64,000 bases of DNA, taken from a virus. The translations under genes and the position numbers were made by a program. The DNA is taken from the IMG/VR virus record IMGVR_UViG_3300024999_000002; one strand, given 5' to 3'. Under the pieces are notes generated by a model that had not been told where the DNA came from, did no database searches, and saw nothing but the letters and a program-made list of their open reading frames with translations. Shown here piece after piece: positions 1 through 23,147 of this stretch; the stretch's first letter is position 1, and each line of letters starts with the position of its first letter.

Positions 1-33
1 AGAAATAAAAATCTCAGTCGGTTAGGTGAGAAG

Positions 34-79
34 AAAACCCTTGGCCTATACTCTGGTATTAGAGTGGCCTTGGGTTTTT
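34..79 (+). terminator. Long imperfect hairpin ending in a T-run (terminator-like) upstream of the tRNA region
   Basis: Nested stems AAAACCC(34-40)/GGGTTTT(72-78), GGCC(43-46)/GGCC(66-69), ACTCT(50-54)/AGAGT(61-65); T-run 75-79. Confidence 0.3.
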
Positions 80-84
80 GATAT

Positions 85-118
85 TGCTCCATAGCTCAGC
101 TGGACAGAGCGACAGATT
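85..118 (+). tRNA. 5' half of a split tRNA (acceptor 5' strand, full D-arm, anticodon-stem 5' strand, first loop bases)
   Basis: TGCTCCA-TA-GCTC-AGCTGGACA-GAGC-G-ACAGA-TT. Acceptor and anticodon-stem strands pair perfectly with 650-689 (7/7 bp including one G-U, and 5/5 bp), not with adjacent sequence. Confidence 0.7.
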
Positions 119-123
119 TACAA

Positions 124-155
124 TTTGGAAGTCTCAATAATTAATATTATATTTG
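124..155 (+). promoter_or_regulatory. Bacteroidota-type sigma-A promoter (-33 TTTG / -7 TAnnTTTG) for the endonuclease ORF
   Basis: TTTG(124-127)-N20-TATATTTG(148-155), 16 nt upstream of ATG 172. Confidence 0.55.
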
Positions 156-171
156 TCTAAAATTTTGCAAT

Positions 172-582
172 ATGCAACATCATACGAAAGACAAAGGAGA
201 CACTGGAGTTGGCTTTGTAATAGCAGACTTAATGAGTAAAAATATACAAGTATGTATCCCAATTTCTGAACATCAACCTTATGATTTGGTTGGTATAAGA
301 AGTAATGGAACTACAATTAAAATATCCGTAAAATATAGAAAAGCTTCAGAAGGAACCGTAGATATACAATTTAAAAGTGTATATTCAGATTCTAGAGGAA
401 GTCATTCGGAATTTACAGATAAATCTTGTATAGATTTAATGGCAATTTATTGCCCAGATACTCAAAAAGTTTACTATATAAATCCTTCCAACTTCAATTT
501 GGCGGTATCCTTAAGGATATCCCCAACCAAAAATAACCAAACCAAAGGTATTCTTTTTGCAGACAGTTATTTAATCCCATAG
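172..582 (+). CDS. PD-(D/E)XK-type homing endonuclease (family known from a cyanobacterial tRNA intron, I-Ssp6803I-like)
   Basis: N-terminal KGDTGVGFVIADLMSKNIQVCIPISEHQPYDLVG...IKISVKY matches the KGD...YDL...xVK pattern of this family. Lies inside a tRNA gene. Confidence 0.6.
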   Translation: MQHHTKDKGDTGVGFVIADLMSKNIQVCIPISEHQPYDLVGIRSNGTTIKISVKYRKASEGTVDIQFKSVYSDSRGSHSEFTDKSCIDLMAIYCPDTQKVYYINPSNFNLAVSLRISPTKNNQTKGILFADSYLIP

Positions 583-644
583 TTCAACGAACAGAACGAA
601 AGTTTTCTAAACTTTAAATCTAGGTTTGATTCCTAGTGGGGTTA
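573..644 (+). tRNA. tRNA-Arg(UCU)-like cloverleaf, 72 nt, with non-canonical D and T loops
   Basis: AATCCCA-TA-GTTC-AACGAACA-GAAC-G-AAAGT-TTTCTAA-ACTTT-AAAT-CTAGG-TTTGATT-CCTAG-TGGGGTT-A. All four stems pair fully (one G-U), with U33 and A37 present. D loop lacks GG and T loop is TTTGATT (no C56). Overlaps the ORF stop by 10 nt. Confidence 0.6.
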
Positions 645-649
645 CTATG

Positions 650-689
650 TTTAATCTGTAGGTCGGGGGTTCGAGCCCCTCTGGAGTAA
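650..689 (+). tRNA. 3' half of the split tRNA (loop 3' bases, anticodon-stem 3' strand, variable loop, T-arm, acceptor 3' strand, discriminator A)
   Basis: TTTAA-TCTGT-AGGTC-GGGGG-TTCGAGC-CCCTC-TGGAGTA-A, with a canonical T-loop. Joining 118 to 650 gives loop TTTTTAA (anticodon UUU, Lys). Other junctions would give UAC (Val) or UAU (Ile). Confidence 0.7.
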
Positions 690-709
690 CAAAACTAAAT
701 TTAAATTTT

Positions 710-967
710 ATGAAGAAAGTATGGATTGCTTTTATAATAGCTGTAATATTAATAACAGTTATGATGATAAAATGTAACGCTGACCTTGATAAGTTGAATA
801 ATACAATACAAGAAAAAAATCAGCTTATAGGACAAAGAATTGTAATAGGTAAAGATACTGCTGTAATAACAGCTTATTCACTATTAAATGACACTTATAT
901 GACTAGTAAAGGTATAGAAATATCAAGTCAATTCGTGGATAAAACTTTAATAATCACAAATAAATAA
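710..967 (+). CDS. Small membrane-anchored or secreted hypothetical protein
   Basis: N-terminal hydrophobic segment VWIAFIIAVILITVMMI; fits the tight gene packing. Confidence 0.55.
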   Translation: MKKVWIAFIIAVILITVMMIKCNADLDKLNNTIQEKNQLIGQRIVIGKDTAVITAYSLLNDTYMTSKGIEISSQFVDKTLIITNK

Positions 968-979
968 CAAAAAACAATT

Positions 980-1324
980 ATGAGTAAATTTGTAAAGAAC
1001 CTTGTTAAAGATTCCAAGGGAATCAAAGAACAAAGAGCAGTGATCCTTGCTAACGAAGCAAAGAATGCGCAAGAAGATTTAACCAGAAGACTCATCAGAG
1101 AGATGGATATTCTTAAGGTTAAAATGTTAAACCTTGAAGATATGTCACCTGAGAATGATTATTCTCTACGTCCTGGTGGAAAAGGCTTCAATGCTGCAAC
1201 TTGGGTAGCAGAAGTTCAAGCTACTAAAGTAGCTATCTTGAACAAAGAAGTTGAACTTAAATTAGCTCTCGCAACTACTGAAGAGTGGTTTGCTGAAGAA
1301 ACCGAAAAAAAGGCTAAAGCTTAA
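980..1324 (+). CDS. Hypothetical protein (charged, helical)
   Basis: ORF in a co-directional array; 3-nt gap to the next start. Confidence 0.55.
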   Translation: MSKFVKNLVKDSKGIKEQRAVILANEAKNAQEDLTRRLIREMDILKVKMLNLEDMSPENDYSLRPGGKGFNAATWVAEVQATKVAILNKEVELKLALATTEEWFAEETEKKAKA

Positions 1325-1326
1325 TT

Positions 1327-1959
1327 ATGAGCCGTAAAAGAGTATATTTCTCAAAGTCTAATGAGTGTGATCCTAATGATGCGCGAGCAGTACATGAGAT
1401 TCTCAACTCATTAGATATTGAGGTAGTAGAATTTAAAGGGGGAAAGTATGATCCAGCCATCGTTGATGATTGCGAGTACATACTCTTTTTGCCTCCTAAG
1501 AATTCTTTAAATCCAGGTACTGAAGGTAGTGGTGAATCTACCTATGATATAGGTAAAGGCCAGTATGATCAATTTGAGAGATTTCTTAATAGTGATCATG
1601 AGGATAATACATATATAGTCTCAGGTATTTGTGGTAACACTATACTAGTAGATTATATTGATACCTATGAAGAACATGAATCAGAAGATCAGAGTTGGGG
1701 TAACTATTATGGATATTTTGAAACTGATCAAGCAATGAAAGATTTCAGAGTTCATCTTGGTATGGCCGAAGATGTTAAATCTGAAGTTACCTATGATTTA
1801 AGTGATGATTTTGAAACAATGGTTGCTCAAATGGAAAAAGAACTCGTAAGAGTAGCACCAGCATCACCTAAACCAGCAATGGTATGGATGGGTACAAGAT
1901 CACTTCAACTAGAAGAAGGCCCTATGCTTGCAGCAGCAGCATATCTAGGCTTAATTTAA
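1327..1959 (+). CDS. Hypothetical protein
   Basis: 210-aa ORF; no motif I can name. Confidence 0.55.
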   Translation: MSRKRVYFSKSNECDPNDARAVHEILNSLDIEVVEFKGGKYDPAIVDDCEYILFLPPKNSLNPGTEGSGESTYDIGKGQYDQFERFLNSDHEDNTYIVSGICGNTILVDYIDTYEEHESEDQSWGNYYGYFETDQAMKDFRVHLGMAEDVKSEVTYDLSDDFETMVAQMEKELVRVAPASPKPAMVWMGTRSLQLEEGPMLAAAAYLGLI

Positions 1960-2523: not shown

Positions 2524-3699
2524 ATGATCTTTTTTGTATCAAAACAGAAAAGAGTTTTTGCTGATACAATACAAGAAAGAACAATACAAGACTGTCTAGC
2601 ATATTTTGAGAACATTAATGAAATTGCCGTAGATACGGAAACTCAAGGGTTCGACCCACATACAAAGAATGTCCTATCAATCCAGATAGGACATTTTGAA
2701 AATCAGTTTGTGGTTGACTGTACAACAGTTAATATAGCACAACTGAAACCTTTATTAGAAAATGAAAATAAAGTATTCTTATTTCACAATGCAAAGTTTG
2801 ATTTAAAATTCCTTTATAAGCATAACATATACCCTAAGAAAGTATATGATACGTTTTTAGCAGAGTGTATTCTTACAACTGGATGGGAAGAAAGAGAACT
2901 TTCATTAAAATGGGTAGCTCACAAGTATTGTGGGGTTACTCTGGACAAATCAATACGTGGTACTATACACATAGAAGGATTAACTGATAGAGTTATAGTC
3001 TATGGTGCAGATGATGTAAAGTATTTACCACTTATTAAGGAAAAACAATTAGTGCAAATAGAACACTTCAATTTACATAACCTGTTAAGGCTTGAAAATG
3101 AAGTTGTAAAAGTATTTGCAAGAATGGAGTTCAATGGAGCTCCGTTGAATAAAGTGAAATGGCAAGAAGTATCTGAGCAAGTTGAAACTAATGTCAAGGC
3201 ACTTGAAGAACAAATGGATGCCCTTATTTATACTCATGGAATAAAAGATTTACCTAAAGCAAATGTACTCACTAAATATTGTGAGATATATAAGCAAGGT
3301 AATATGTTCTTTGATGATAAACAAAGAGATTGTAATATCAATTGGAGCTCACCAGCACAGAAAACTAAATTATTACAAGACTTAGGTCTTAAAGTTACTT
3401 CAGTTGATGATAAAACATTACAGAAATTAAAAACACAACATCCAATTGTACCTTTATTAATTACATATTCAAAACAAAATAAATTAGCAACATCCTTTGG
3501 TAAAGATTTTCTTAAATTTGTTAATCCTGTAACTGGTAGAGTACATGGCAATGTCTGGCAAGTGCTTTCAACCGGCAGGATAAGTATCTCAGAACCAAAC
3601 ATTAACCAGATTCCGAGTCATGGACCTTTGGCAAAACTAATTCGAGCGTCTTTTGAAGCTCCGAAAGGTTATAAATTTGTTGGAGGTGATTATAGTGGT
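2524..3699 (+). CDS. Family A DNA polymerase, exon 1 (3'-5' exonuclease domain and N-terminal polymerase up to motif A ...GGDYSG)
   Basis: Exo motifs AVDTETQG and FHNAKFDLKF. Sequence ends at DYSG, the first half of motif A (compare T7 DASGLELR). Downstream residues RKNKLNFIW... look non-coding. Confidence 0.85.
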
Positions 3700-3772: not shown

Positions 3773-4561
3773 ATGTATTTTAATGAAAAGAAAATAATTG
3801 AAGACTATTTAAATGGTAAAAATACTAAGCAAATAGCAATTGAACTTAATACCTACAACACATCAGTTAGACGCGTATTGCTGCGTAATAATATTAGATT
3901 AAGAAGTCAATCAGAGGCACAAGTTAAAACTGTGAATAACTTTTTAGATTTGTCTAATGAAAATGTGCAATATTGGCTTGGATTCCTTGCTGCTGATGGT
4001 ACTGTGGGTAAAAAAGATTTTTTAGTCTCTCTAGAACTTCAAAGAAAAGATTTAAATCATTTACTTAAATATTGTAATTTTATAGGAATATCTTATAAAA
4101 CTATAAAATACCCTAAATATAACACAGTAGGATATAGGGCTAATTTTCGTAATAAAGAAGTAAATTTATATTTAAAGGCGCTAGGAATTACTGATAATAA
4201 AAGTAAAACTATTAAAATAAATTTTAATTTTAATAGACATTTTATTAGAGGAGTTTTTGATGGTGATGGATATGCTAGACTTCTTTCCGAAAAAAGAGGA
4301 GCCTATGAAATAGCTACTATGAGTTTAGATTTTAAAAATCAATTATCAACTTTTTTTAATAATAATAGTATTAAACATACTGTAACTTTACGAAAAGATG
4401 GAATATTTCTAATAGGAATATATACCCAAAATGAAGTGAAAAAATTTTATAACATAATTTATGATAATGCTACAGTATTTCTTGAAAGAAAGAAAGCTGT
4501 TATATGCCCTCTATATGAAGAAATTCAATTAGATGCAAAACTTTCAAATTCGGTGAACTAA
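3773..4561 (+). CDS. Double-motif LAGLIDADG homing endonuclease with N-terminal HTH
   Basis: YWLGFLAADGTV and FIRGVFDGDGYA motifs; paralog of the 22356-23147 ORF. Confidence 0.85.
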   Translation: MYFNEKKIIEDYLNGKNTKQIAIELNTYNTSVRRVLLRNNIRLRSQSEAQVKTVNNFLDLSNENVQYWLGFLAADGTVGKKDFLVSLELQRKDLNHLLKYCNFIGISYKTIKYPKYNTVGYRANFRNKEVNLYLKALGITDNKSKTIKINFNFNRHFIRGVFDGDGYARLLSEKRGAYEIATMSLDFKNQLSTFFNNNSIKHTVTLRKDGIFLIGIYTQNEVKKFYNIIYDNATVFLERKKAVICPLYEEIQLDAKLSNSVN

Positions 4562-4682
4562 GCATGAGAATACCGAGCCAAGACATTAGAAATAATGTAA
4601 GGTGTACAGACTAGACGGAAGTTACCTAAGTACATATAGTGTATAAGGTTAAGGTATAGTCGAAACAGAACAAAACTGTTTG

Positions 4683-5390
4683 ATGGAGTTAAGAATTATA
4701 GCAGAATTTAGTCAAGATCCTTTATGGCTTGAAGTATTCAAAAGAGGTGGAGATTTGCACTCCGAATTATGTGCAGCTACCTTTAAAATACCATTGAGTG
4801 ATGTTAAAACACCTTTCCCACCTAAGCCAAGTTTTACATACAGAGATGTACAGAAGACGGTCGACTTTGGGTTAGCCTTCGGAATGTCAGAATTTAAATT
4901 ATCTGATACAATACAAGTTCCGGTAGATAAAGCCAAACAGATCATCAAAGACTTCTTTAAAATTGTTCCAAAAGTGGAACAGTTCTTAAATAAGTTAGGT
5001 GAATTAGGTAAGGCAAGAGGTTTTATAGCCACTCCAGAACCTATGAAAAGAATTCGTTGGTTTCAACAATGGGAACATGCAGTAGAAACTAAAGATTTTA
5101 GAGTAATGGGGGAAATTGAAAGACAATCAAAAAATTTCCCAATACAATCAACGAACGCTAATATTACTAAGCTGGCCATGTGCAACTTACAATACCTCAT
5201 TGATAAAGATAATTTACCTGTACAAATTGTAATGCAGGTATATGATGAACTTCAATGTATTGTTAAAGAAGAATTTGCAGAAGAATGGAAAGTAATCTTA
5301 GAACAAGAGATGATTAAAGCAGCACAAATAATAATAAAAACAATCCCAGTAGAGGTAGATTGCAAAATTTCCTCGCATTGGCAAAAATAA
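4683..5390 (+). CDS. Family A DNA polymerase, exon 2 (second half of motif A, motifs B and C)
   Basis: MELRIIAEFSQD; RDVQKTVDFGLAFGMS (motif B); QVYDELQ (motif C). Confidence 0.85.
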   Translation: MELRIIAEFSQDPLWLEVFKRGGDLHSELCAATFKIPLSDVKTPFPPKPSFTYRDVQKTVDFGLAFGMSEFKLSDTIQVPVDKAKQIIKDFFKIVPKVEQFLNKLGELGKARGFIATPEPMKRIRWFQQWEHAVETKDFRVMGEIERQSKNFPIQSTNANITKLAMCNLQYLIDKDNLPVQIVMQVYDELQCIVKEEFAEEWKVILEQEMIKAAQIIIKTIPVEVDCKISSHWQK

Positions 5391-22084: not shown

Positions 22085-22355
22085 TAAAATGAATGGTGCA
22101 GCCTTAAAGTAATTTAAGGTAAAAAATATCGGATGAACTCAGGGAACGGAGATAAAGTGACCAATCCTGAGCCAAGCTAAAGATTAAATGTCTTTAGAAG
22201 GTGCAACGACTAGGTATTGAAACTAAATAATGGAAAGTTCTTCTAATGGAATAGGAAATGTCTCCCAGAAAGGAGCAGAATATAGGTTTGAGTCCTATAC
22301 TTTCTACTAGATTATTTAGAATATAATATACCCACGAGCGTCCGACATCCTATCA

Positions 22356-23147
22356 CTAGGATGATGATATAGTCTGAACTTTAGGATACTTTAAAATAAG
22401 TTTTTCAATTCCTTGATTAAACTTATTAATTTTTCTTGTTAACTTAAAAGGAGAGTTATTATAAATTAAATAGAATTTATATACTTCTTCTTTCTTAGCA
22501 AAACTTAATATCCACGTTTTGTTAAAAAATAATGAATAATTTTGTAAATTTAGAGAATCGGCAATACCCTTTAATAACTCTTCAGTACCTCTGATAGATA
22601 CTCGAATAGTTGTTATATTAGGATTGTTGCTTACATGAATACAGCCATCTCCATCTAAATAACCTGATATAAAACTTCCATGAAATTCATTTGGGATATT
22701 TAATAAGATATTAGTTAGAGTTTTGGATTTTCTTTGTGTAATTCCTAAATTTAATAAATCATTTACTAGTAATGGATTAGATAATGTAAATCTAACCATT
22801 TCATTATTAGGAAATGTAAGAACTTTTTCACAACCAATTTCTTGTCTAAGCAATTCTAAAACTTCTGTATCAACTCTATTTATTTGAATACCTAGAGTAA
22901 CAGAGGAAGAATTGGAACGTACAATATAACCATCTGCAGCAATAAATCCTAGTAAGTAGGCCTTTGTAGCAGAATCTATATTCTGAAAATATCGTATATT
23001 ACCTTGATTAGACCTATAATATATGGAATATTTTTGCAATATGTAGGTTACGGACGAGTATTTTATATTAAGTTCTTTAGAAATTTGAATGGGAGTTTTA
23101 CCATTCTCTGCTAGAGATTTAATTAAATTATGGTCATGAATTTGCAT
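22356..23147 (-). CDS. Double-motif LAGLIDADG homing endonuclease with N-terminal HTH, antisense to its host gene
   Basis: YLLGFIAADGYI and FISGYLDGDGCI. Same architecture and length (263 vs 262 aa) as the 3773-4561 ORF. Confidence 0.85.
   Translation of the reverse strand: MQIHDHNLIKSLAENGKTPIQISKELNIKYSSVTYILQKYSIYYRSNQGNIRYFQNIDSATKAYLLGFIAADGYIVRSNSSSVTLGIQINRVDTEVLELLRQEIGCEKVLTFPNNEMVRFTLSNPLLVNDLLNLGITQRKSKTLTNILLNIPNEFHGSFISGYLDGDGCIHVSNNPNITTIRVSIRGTEELLKGIADSLNLQNYSLFFNKTWILSFAKKEEVYKFYLIYNNSPFKLTRKINKFNQGIEKLILKYPKVQTISSS

Follow-up and report, generated by a model that had tools for sequence, protein, structure and literature searches.

What becomes of a transfer RNA (tRNA) gene when an endonuclease gene is inserted into its anticodon loop, and why would the insert also contain a second tRNA gene that is complete? 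Both questions are raised by positions 85-689 of the phage sequence IMGVR_UViG_3300024999_000002 (IMG/VR), of which a stretch of 64,000 nucleotides (nt), hereafter the window, was analysed; all coordinates are positions in the window, on one strand. Two halves of one tRNA gene lie at 85-118 and 650-689, with 531 nt between them. The insert is probably an intron-free homing cassette that entered the anticodon loop of a tRNA-Arg(UCU)-type gene directly after nucleotide 33 (33|34) and supplies a replacement tRNA. The features of the locus are as follows.

85-118, + strand: 5′ half of the outer tRNA, identified from its sequence, by ARAGORN on the joined halves and in intron mode, and by gapless alignment with tRNA-Arg(UCU); it consists of the acceptor strand (85-91), the D arm (94-110), the 5′ strand of the anticodon stem (112-116) and U32-U33 (117-118)
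119-171, + strand: leader of the cassette with a promoter-like site, identified from a motif conserved across leaders and from a sigma-70 scan
172-582, + strand: homing endonuclease gene (HEG) encoding 136 amino acids (aa), identified by Pfam as PF11645; its stop codon TAG is at 580-582
573-644, + strand: inner, complete tRNA-Arg(UCU), identified by ARAGORN and RF00005; the anticodon is at 606-608 and no CCA is encoded
645-649, + strand: spacer of 5 nt, CTATG, from the inner discriminator to the outer 3′ half, identified from the sequence
650-689, + strand: 3′ half of the outer tRNA, identified from its sequence, from pairing counts and from the TCTAA that loci L017 and L026 have at the equivalent of 650-654; it consists of UUUAA (650-654), the anticodon stem strand (655-659), AGGTC (660-664), the T arm (665-681), the acceptor strand (682-688) and A689

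The 5′ half reads TGCTCCA-TA-GCTC-AGCTGGACA-GAGC-G-ACAGA-TT and the 3′ half reads TTTAA-TCTGT-AGGTC-GGGGG-TTCGAGC-CCCTC-TGGAGTA-A. Across the insert, the acceptor strands (85-91, TGCTCCA; 682-688, TGGAGTA) pair at 7/7 positions, one of them G.U, and the anticodon stem strands (112-116, ACAGA; 655-659, TCTGT) pair at 5/5 positions; the D stem is formed by 94-97 (GCTC) and 107-110 (GAGC), and the T arm by 665-669 (GGGGG) and 677-681 (CCCTC), with one G.U pair and the loop TTCGAGC at 670-676, followed beyond the acceptor strand by the discriminator A689. These coordinates and this anatomy agree with an original prediction that had been made from the letters of the window alone. ARAGORN in intron mode calls a single tRNA at 85-690 with an intron of 529 nt, and, given the joined halves, it calls a tRNA for almost all junctions tested in which about 5 nt or more remain for the anticodon loop.

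The HEG and the inner tRNA overlap, the stop codon TAG being nucleotides 8-10 of the tRNA, and only 53 + 5 nt (58 nt) of the insert lie outside the open reading frame (ORF) and the tRNA. The same succession of 5′ half, leader, HEG, tRNA-Arg(UCU) overlapping the stop, and 3′ half recurs in the independent relatives L007/L008, L014, L017, L026 and L030, and therefore the split-tRNA layout is not a product of chance. At the left junction the stem is always followed by TT | AGGTATTTGG... (in the window, TT | TACAATTTGG), and the spacer between the inner tRNA and the outer 3′ half is 5 nt long in L007 and L026 and 15-18 nt long in L014, L017 and L030. Over positions 1-1400 of the window, no population variation is seen among eight contigs of this phage, which are identical there.

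A homing endonuclease associated with tRNA-Arg(UCU)

The ORF at 172-582, in which the original prediction had recognised a PD-(D/E)XK endonuclease, matches PF11645 (PDDEXK_5) with E = 1.2e-27 and 97.1 bits (cut-off 26.1), 131/136 residues being covered, and its product is accordingly annotated as a predicted PD-(D/E)XK homing endonuclease of the I-Ssp6803I family. The window protein has 221 homologues, with one large group of 136-137 residues that are 55-67% identical to it. All 27 columns that are invariant across 35 homologues, including E33, H34, D38 and K54, are present in the window protein. A profile built from these 35 homologues has a weak match to PDB 2OST (E = 0.009), with PLSEHLPFDL...SVK aligned against PLGDRLSYDL...QVK; phmmer with the single HEG protein returned zero matches in PDB.

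About 180 related loci (numbered with the prefix L) were compared, the DNA being drawn from assemblies, viral contigs, metagenomes and species-representative genomes. At nearly all of 80 metagenomic HEG loci, a tRNA-Arg(UCU) gene is directly downstream of the HEG, just upstream of it, or split around it by an intron, and tRNA-Arg(UCU) adjoins the HEG at 72 of the 80 loci in species-representative genomes. Four arrangements were found among the relatives. In the phage type, which is that of the window, a tRNA 5′ half is followed by the leader, the HEG and a tRNA-Arg(UCU) that overlaps its stop, with or without a tRNA 3′ half thereafter. In type A, the HEG is 1-33 nt upstream of tRNA-Arg(UCU). 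In type B, tRNA-Arg(UCU) is found upstream, at a distance of about 12-110 nt from the HEG, and in approximately two thirds of the metagenomic examples it is encoded on the opposite strand; to this type belong 61 of the 80 species-representative loci (L135-L214), mainly in Mycolicibacterium, Nocardioides, Isoptericola and other Actinomycetota. In type C, the HEG is located inside a group I intron interrupting tRNA-Arg(UCU) between U34 and C35. Neighbour-joining groups the phage-type proteins in a single clade beside sequences of types A and B, and places the intron-borne enzymes elsewhere.

Several of these loci are of interest in their own right. The type B arrangement of the 61 genomes is that of a free-standing HEG with an opposite-strand tRNA-Arg(UCU) about 60-110 nt upstream, seemingly without an intron, and is a highly regular association of the HEG with what is presumed to be its target. 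In L051/L052 (approximately 1360-2000), a high-GC bacterial contig, an antisense HEG lies between a full tRNA-Arg(UCU) gene and an orphan tRNA-Arg 5′ half of 36 nt that resembles this neighbouring full gene, a split-and-duplicate layout as in the window; orphan tRNA pieces are also found beside the HEG at the non-phage loci L035, L065 and L072. At 4512-4858 of L007, 1.3 kb away from its tRNA-Arg cassette, a truncated PDDEXK_5 ORF of 94 aa ends in a stop codon TAG that constitutes nucleotides 8-10 of a tRNA-Ile(GAU). The same phage as that of the window has, approximately 2.3 kb upstream of window position 1 (L001 488-1069), a HEG of the GIY-YIG/NUMOD kind on the opposite strand. With this HEG, one or more group I introns and the PD-(D/E)XK cassette, the phage thus has several selfish elements.

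The leader of the cassette

The 53-nt leader may contain the HEG's own promoter. In it, TTTG (124-127) is separated by 20 nt from TATATTTG (148-155), and the motif TTTG-N19-20-TAnnTTT(G/A) is located at the same position in 9/9 distinct cassette leaders, with only two exact matches on the + strand across the whole window. A sigma-70 scan also selects 125-153, and the motif fits the Bacteroidota −33/−7 promoter consensus. Of the host-type promoter that had been predicted here, the motif stands as a conserved element, and its putative function is suggested by this consensus. A conserved motif of the leader, ATTTGnnAGTCT, was also considered as a P1 or guide sequence; it was rejected in that role because a −7 box is found 20 nt downstream and no pairing with the exon is found in L007, and it fits a −33 element.

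The inner tRNA

The original prediction had placed a tRNA with the anticodon UCU at 573-644, overlapping the HEG stop codon. ARAGORN calls this tRNA, it scores 60.2 bits on RF00005 (threshold 29), and it is the only intact tRNA that ARAGORN finds in the 64 kb. When 11 distinct inner tRNAs were aligned, 98.3% of the cells proved to be paired and 17 of the 22 pairs to vary on both sides; none of 500 shuffles (0/500) reaches the observed values, and slid controls drop to 28-50% paired. The D and T loops of the window tRNA are odd, and the original prediction had suspected that they co-vary. Alignment columns 18 and 55, which are equated with the G19-C56 pair, indeed hold A-U in the window where 10 relatives have G-C, a pattern that indicates a real compensatory change. 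The proportion of paired cells, the two-sided changes, the failure of the shuffles and the covariation of this tertiary pair argue that the inner tRNA is under selection, and it looks functional.

In all 11 inner tRNAs, nucleotides 11 and 24 are U11-A24 where the target type has C11-G24, and the variable loop has 4 nt where the target type has RGGTY. Both differences are candidates for features that would make the inner gene resistant to the enzyme and reduce its pairing with the 5′ half of a recipient. The codon AGA accounts for 200 of the 312 arginine codons (64%) in the long ORFs counted, and the window has 34% G+C.

Evidence for mobility

The cassettes of L014-L017, L027, L031 and L032 are 89-99% identical, and almost all of their 300-nt flanking sequences are at the random baseline of 61% obtained with shuffled sequence, the exception being the upstream flanks of L027 and L032, which are 87% identical. 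In L017 and L032, a block of 98% identity extends from the D arm, inside the 5′ half of the outer tRNA, as far as the final base of the inner one, which is the pattern expected if a broken tRNA-Arg gene was repaired from a donor with which the tRNA sequence was its sole shared homology. These comparisons, which concern relatives and not the lineage of the window (itself without variants), indicate that the cassette moves between unrelated genomes with co-conversion of adjacent target sequence. Of the three options entertained by the original prediction, they support the one in which a mobile cassette of endonuclease and tRNA killed the outer tRNA, an option that can be refined to replacement by a tRNA of the same identity.

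Identity of the outer tRNA

The identity of the outer tRNA had been left to depend on the junction, as Lys, Val or Ile; the evidence points to Arg(UCU) instead. When the outer halves are joined, the resulting tRNAs of the window, L007, L008, L014, L017, L026 and L030 can be aligned gaplessly with the joined exons of three bacterial tRNA-Arg(UCU) genes that have introns, and have in common with them TAGCTCA..TGGAyAGAGC and a variable loop RGGTY. The outer loops of L017 and L026 are UU|UCUAA, with all stems intact, and thus still have UCU at the anticodon position, where L030 has CCU, L014 and the window have UUU, and L007/L008 have UAC.

The strongest competing explanation accepts the same cassette mechanism, but takes the split gene to have been tRNA-Lys(UUU) or another non-Arg gene and the inner tRNA-Arg to be unrelated cargo. 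The joined loop of the window is UUUUUAA, ARAGORN calls it Lys(UUU), the loop of L014 is identical, and AAA is a very common codon in the window. Against these points, the outer tRNA of the window agrees with Arg(UCU) targets in its length, in its variable loop AGGTC and in its D arm, which has A20; when the anticodon is masked, its closest matches among 224 tRNAs of the compared loci are tRNA-Arg(UCU), in a sample that is biased towards Arg; the cassettes of L014 and L017 are 91% identical, yet L017 has UCU where L014 has UUU; and the whole HEG clade is tied to tRNA-Arg(UCU). A non-Arg target is therefore unlikely, as are the Lys, Val and Ile identities in general, and the most plausible origin of the UUU of the window is a change of C35 to U in a disrupted gene that was probably of the Arg(UCU) type. 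The inner tRNA would then be a replacement rather than random cargo, since it has the same Arg(UCU) identity as the split gene.

Fate of the outer halves

The outer tRNA could still be made as a split tRNA, the third option of the original prediction: RNase P and RNase Z would excise the inner tRNA, and the two halves would anneal or be joined by an RNA ligase of phage or host. The outer halves of the window are the best preserved of all examples, with perfect pairing in all four stems (acceptor, D, T and anticodon); in the fold predicted for 85-700, the two outer ends are paired with each other; and some anticodon nucleases and repair ligases act at tRNA position 33|34, which is the junction observed here. 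Several results are difficult to reconcile with this route. Once RNase P and RNase Z had cut, some 450 nt of mRNA would remain attached to the 5′ half and a leader, CTATG, to the 3′ half. No bridging helix beyond chance was found between 119-171 and 583-649, where the longest helix has 8 bp and is equalled in 148 of 200 shuffles.

The relatives are more telling, because in most of them the 3′ half is undetected, displaced or mismatched. Among the relatives with both halves adjacent, a single mismatch is present in the anticodon stem of L007 and L008, and two are present in L030, where the D stem and the anticodon stem are each affected once. No adjacent outer 3′ half was detected, in the flanking sequence available, in L006, L016/18/19/33/34, L025, L028/29 and L031. 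In L015, the inner tRNA ends in ...TGGAATCACCA, followed by a terminator that resembles the one after the outer half of L017, and it looks as if the 3′ half was removed when the T arm of the inner tRNA recombined with that of the outer one. In L027, L032 and L107, a 3′ fragment is displaced about 390-720 nt further downstream and pairs with the 5′ half at 7/7 acceptor positions, but at only 2/5 positions of the anticodon stem; the 5′ strand of this stem arrived with the cassette, and in L032 it has ceased to pair with the resident 3′ fragment. In the nearest relatives of the window enzyme, L130 (67% identity), L133 and L134, the 5′ half is reduced to about 10-15 nt or gone. On account of the variable anticodons, which differ even among close relatives, the mismatched stems, the undetected, displaced or lost 3′ halves and the truncated or missing 5′ halves, the outer halves look dispensable in the relatives, and a split tRNA is a very improbable explanation of the locus. 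The related proposition that the outer tRNA of the window in particular is still used, its pieces being trimmed and then annealed or ligated into a tRNA with an Arg-type body and a UUU anticodon, has the same very low probability; if it were true, the window would hold a split, nested tRNA gene that is expressed in a bacterial virus without a ribozyme.

Absence of a recognisable ribozyme core

The insert is not an intron of a recognisable kind: it is without a ribozyme core by either of two covariance models, and it contains too little non-coding RNA. RF00028, the group I intron model, was run on positions 1-900 of the window with permissive filters and gave nothing at E<=10, whereas it did recognise, with 56 bits against a threshold of 50, the real group I intron that the phage has at 4491-4683, in its DNA polymerase gene. 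The same model also misses ORF-bearing sister introns in bacterial tRNA-Arg(UCU) genes, because the ORF splits their core. A second covariance model, R1, was therefore built from the aligned 3′ cores of six sister tRNA-Arg introns, in which the HEG stop is followed by GAGACTA.ACG, a covarying P8, AAGATATAGTCC and then GGTAAG|CTAA. R1 recovered all of five held-out introns with 66-116 bits, including one with a 100-nt insertion, and matched neither the 64-kb window nor any of 18 further related loci, mostly of the phage type; with filters off, its best score in window positions 1-1000 was 4.2 bits. The sister introns have 125-162 nt of non-ORF sequence before the ORF and 87-192 nt after it, compared with 53 and 5 nt in the window.

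A reduced or unconventional self-splicing intron that restores the outer tRNA and releases the inner tRNA as a by-product, which was the first option of the original prediction, has some points in its favour: T118 and G649 satisfy the U...G boundary rule, as had been predicted; the enzyme family is intron-associated elsewhere, sister HEGs being located in group I introns of tRNA-Arg(UCU) at U34|C35; the outer stems of the window are perfect; and a 6-bp hairpin (114-119/129-134), the only P1 candidate, could mimic P1. Given that the G.U of this hairpin is at U117, off the splice site, that the helix is not conserved in L007, that the conserved part of the leader fits a promoter, that many relatives are without a 3′ exon, and that both covariance models are negative in a space of 58 nt while R1 recovers every held-out control, such an intron is the least probable of the explanations considered.

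Other observations on introns and non-coding sequence were made in the course of these scans. The polymerase intron at 4491-4683 was missed by a gathering-mode scan of the whole window and was seen only in a 2-kb scan; it is flanked by polymerase ORFs at 3773-4561 and 4680-5390. A second group I intron is probable at approximately 22090-22360, with GAGCCAAG at 22169 followed by AAGGTG..GACTAGG; a T-arm-like hairpin, TATAGGTTTGAGTCCTATA, is found inside it at about 22283-22301, and an ORF of 263 aa (22356-23147) is located just downstream on the opposite strand. The sister introns that carry the HEG family (L042, L044, L068, L078, L085, L086, L090, L095, L100, L101 and L103) are 640-720 nt long, are inserted at U34|C35, and are found by ARAGORN only in intron mode. 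Unexplained non-coding stretches of 130-200 nt are present beside the cassette or the outer 5′ half in L016/L018/L033 (2478-2607 in L018), L006 (approximately 3480-3650) and L007 (approximately 2700-2900); they share ACTA(G)TAAGGTrA..GGCAAAA, with AATATAGTCAGG in L018, and have no match in Rfam or to R1. The stretch is followed at 2608-2690 of L018, as also in L019, L033 and L034, by a tRNA with a long variable arm (RF00005, 42 bits) and an abnormal anticodon loop, for which the ARAGORN output is tRNA-??? with the anticodon 'tt'. Upstream of the cassette of L017, at 526-681, there is a sub-threshold match to alpha_tmRNA (RF01849, 35.9 bits, threshold 50, E = 2e-7).

Proposed mechanism

The homing cassette is proposed to work as follows. 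The endonuclease would cut uninterrupted tRNA-Arg(UCU) genes of co-infecting phages at the anticodon stem-loop. Repair of the break would copy the cassette in, with flanking tRNA gene sequence serving as homology arms, and the insertion would remove the target site, so that the carrier genome is safe from its own enzyme. The split gene would not be mended at the RNA level; the tRNA-Arg(UCU) of the cassette would decode in its place, and the outer halves would be a relic that may persist as homology arms. The overlap of the HEG with the inner tRNA may couple their expression: a cut by RNase P at 572|573 would cleave the HEG mRNA 7 nt before the stop codon, with loss of the last codons, so that one transcript would yield either the tRNA or the complete mRNA, but never both.

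Several considerations weigh against this mechanism. In the window itself, none of the four outer stems has a mismatch, and the loop after joining is UUUUUAA, with the anticodon UUU and not UCU, and accordingly a functional outer tRNA or a Lys-type target in the window phage keeps a small share of the probability. The covariation of the outer stems fits diversity that preceded the insertion, but it fits continued selection as well. A negative result with RF00028 is weak when taken alone, since the model misses ORF-containing sister introns. The inner gene would have to escape cleavage, for which the 11-24 pair and the variable loop are candidate features. Finally, no HEG-less allele of the window locus was found, and the gene as it was before insertion is a reconstruction and not an observation: BLAST of window positions 1-1500 against 50,697 phage records gave no match, the 210-aa downstream protein used as a query returned the same phage only, viral contigs contained no match to a degenerate pattern of the outer tRNA as joined, and the DNA polymerase relatives L125, L127 and L129 (58-64% identity) are not syntenic and have no tRNA upstream of the polymerase gene.

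Comparison with known systems

For I-Ssp6803I, the namesake of the enzyme family, the site is in the tRNA-fMet gene of Synechocystis PCC 6803, in the region that encodes the anticodon stem-loop. This enzyme recognises a 23-bp pseudo-palindromic site (PMC3384342). The window insert resembles the group I intron of that tRNA-fMet gene in having a PF11645 enzyme and in being inserted in an anticodon loop, and differs from it in having no ribozyme core, a promoter-like leader of its own, a full tRNA gene and tRNA-Arg(UCU) as its target. It differs also from the sister tRNA-Arg introns, which are inserted at 34|35 rather than 33|34.

Homing without an intron is established in phage tRNA clusters, where the free-standing genes for T4 SegB and T5 F-Tfl spread together with flanking markers. 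The context of SegB as a phage HEG among tRNA genes has been described (PMC13096335, PMC2988022). Like these genes, the HEG of the window is outside an intron and linked to tRNA, and in its relatives the flanking strand of the anticodon stem is co-converted. Unlike SegB and F-Tfl, which are GIY-YIG enzymes encoded between intact tRNA genes, it splits its target gene and brings a replacement copy.

Insertion of a HEG can also fracture a protein-coding gene, as in the fractured genes that have split inteins (PMC2677866). In these and in Aeh1 nrdA/mobE, as in the window, the HEG is placed directly in a host gene, leaving two flanking fragments and no intact intron or intein. The rescue of nrdA and of the fractured genes is at the protein level, by subunit assembly or by trans-splicing inteins, whereas the one proposed for the window relies on a second copy of the gene, with the fragments apparently left unused.

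In its logic, the cassette is most closely analogous to integrative elements, which enter tRNA genes while carrying the displaced segment (the attP/attB duplication) and so keep the tRNA working. They too are mobile elements that target a tRNA gene and bring sequence that preserves its function. However, they use an integrase, duplicate the 3′ end only and are excisable, whereas the cassette would depend on an endonuclease and homologous repair, is inserted in the anticodon loop and duplicates the whole tRNA, although in some relatives this is effectively the 5′ half.

In the split tRNAs of archaea such as Nanoarchaeum equitans, complementary leader and trailer sequences form a bulge-helix-bulge for the splicing endonuclease. 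The outer tRNA of the window is like these in that its halves are encoded apart, with the break in the region of the anticodon loop; unlike them, it has complementarity at the junction that does not exceed chance, and its halves are apparently dispensable in relatives.

Stand-alone PDDEXK_5 genes have been mentioned in Bacteroides jumbo phages, without a context of tRNA splitting (PMC12880540). No description of a HEG together with a spare tRNA inside a split tRNA was found in the searchable literature, the coverage of which is incomplete and does not prove novelty.

Implications

HEGs are not known to persist in essential genes other than by means of self-splicing introns or inteins; otherwise they reside between genes. 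The cassette would represent a third route, by which a HEG cuts a gene, inserts itself and carries a replacement copy, so that splicing is unneeded. Within one HEG clade and with one target, there would be a natural series of endonuclease genes that are in an intron, free-standing beside the target, or inside the target with a spare copy, which bears on how endonuclease genes enter and leave introns. Cassettes of this kind may account for tRNA fragments and for apparently missing tRNAs in metagenomic phages, in this case with a promoter motif that points to Bacteroidota hosts; standard tRNA finders report the inner gene only. They also bring to attention a compact enzyme family of approximately 136 aa that is likely to be specific for tRNA-Arg(UCU) genes.

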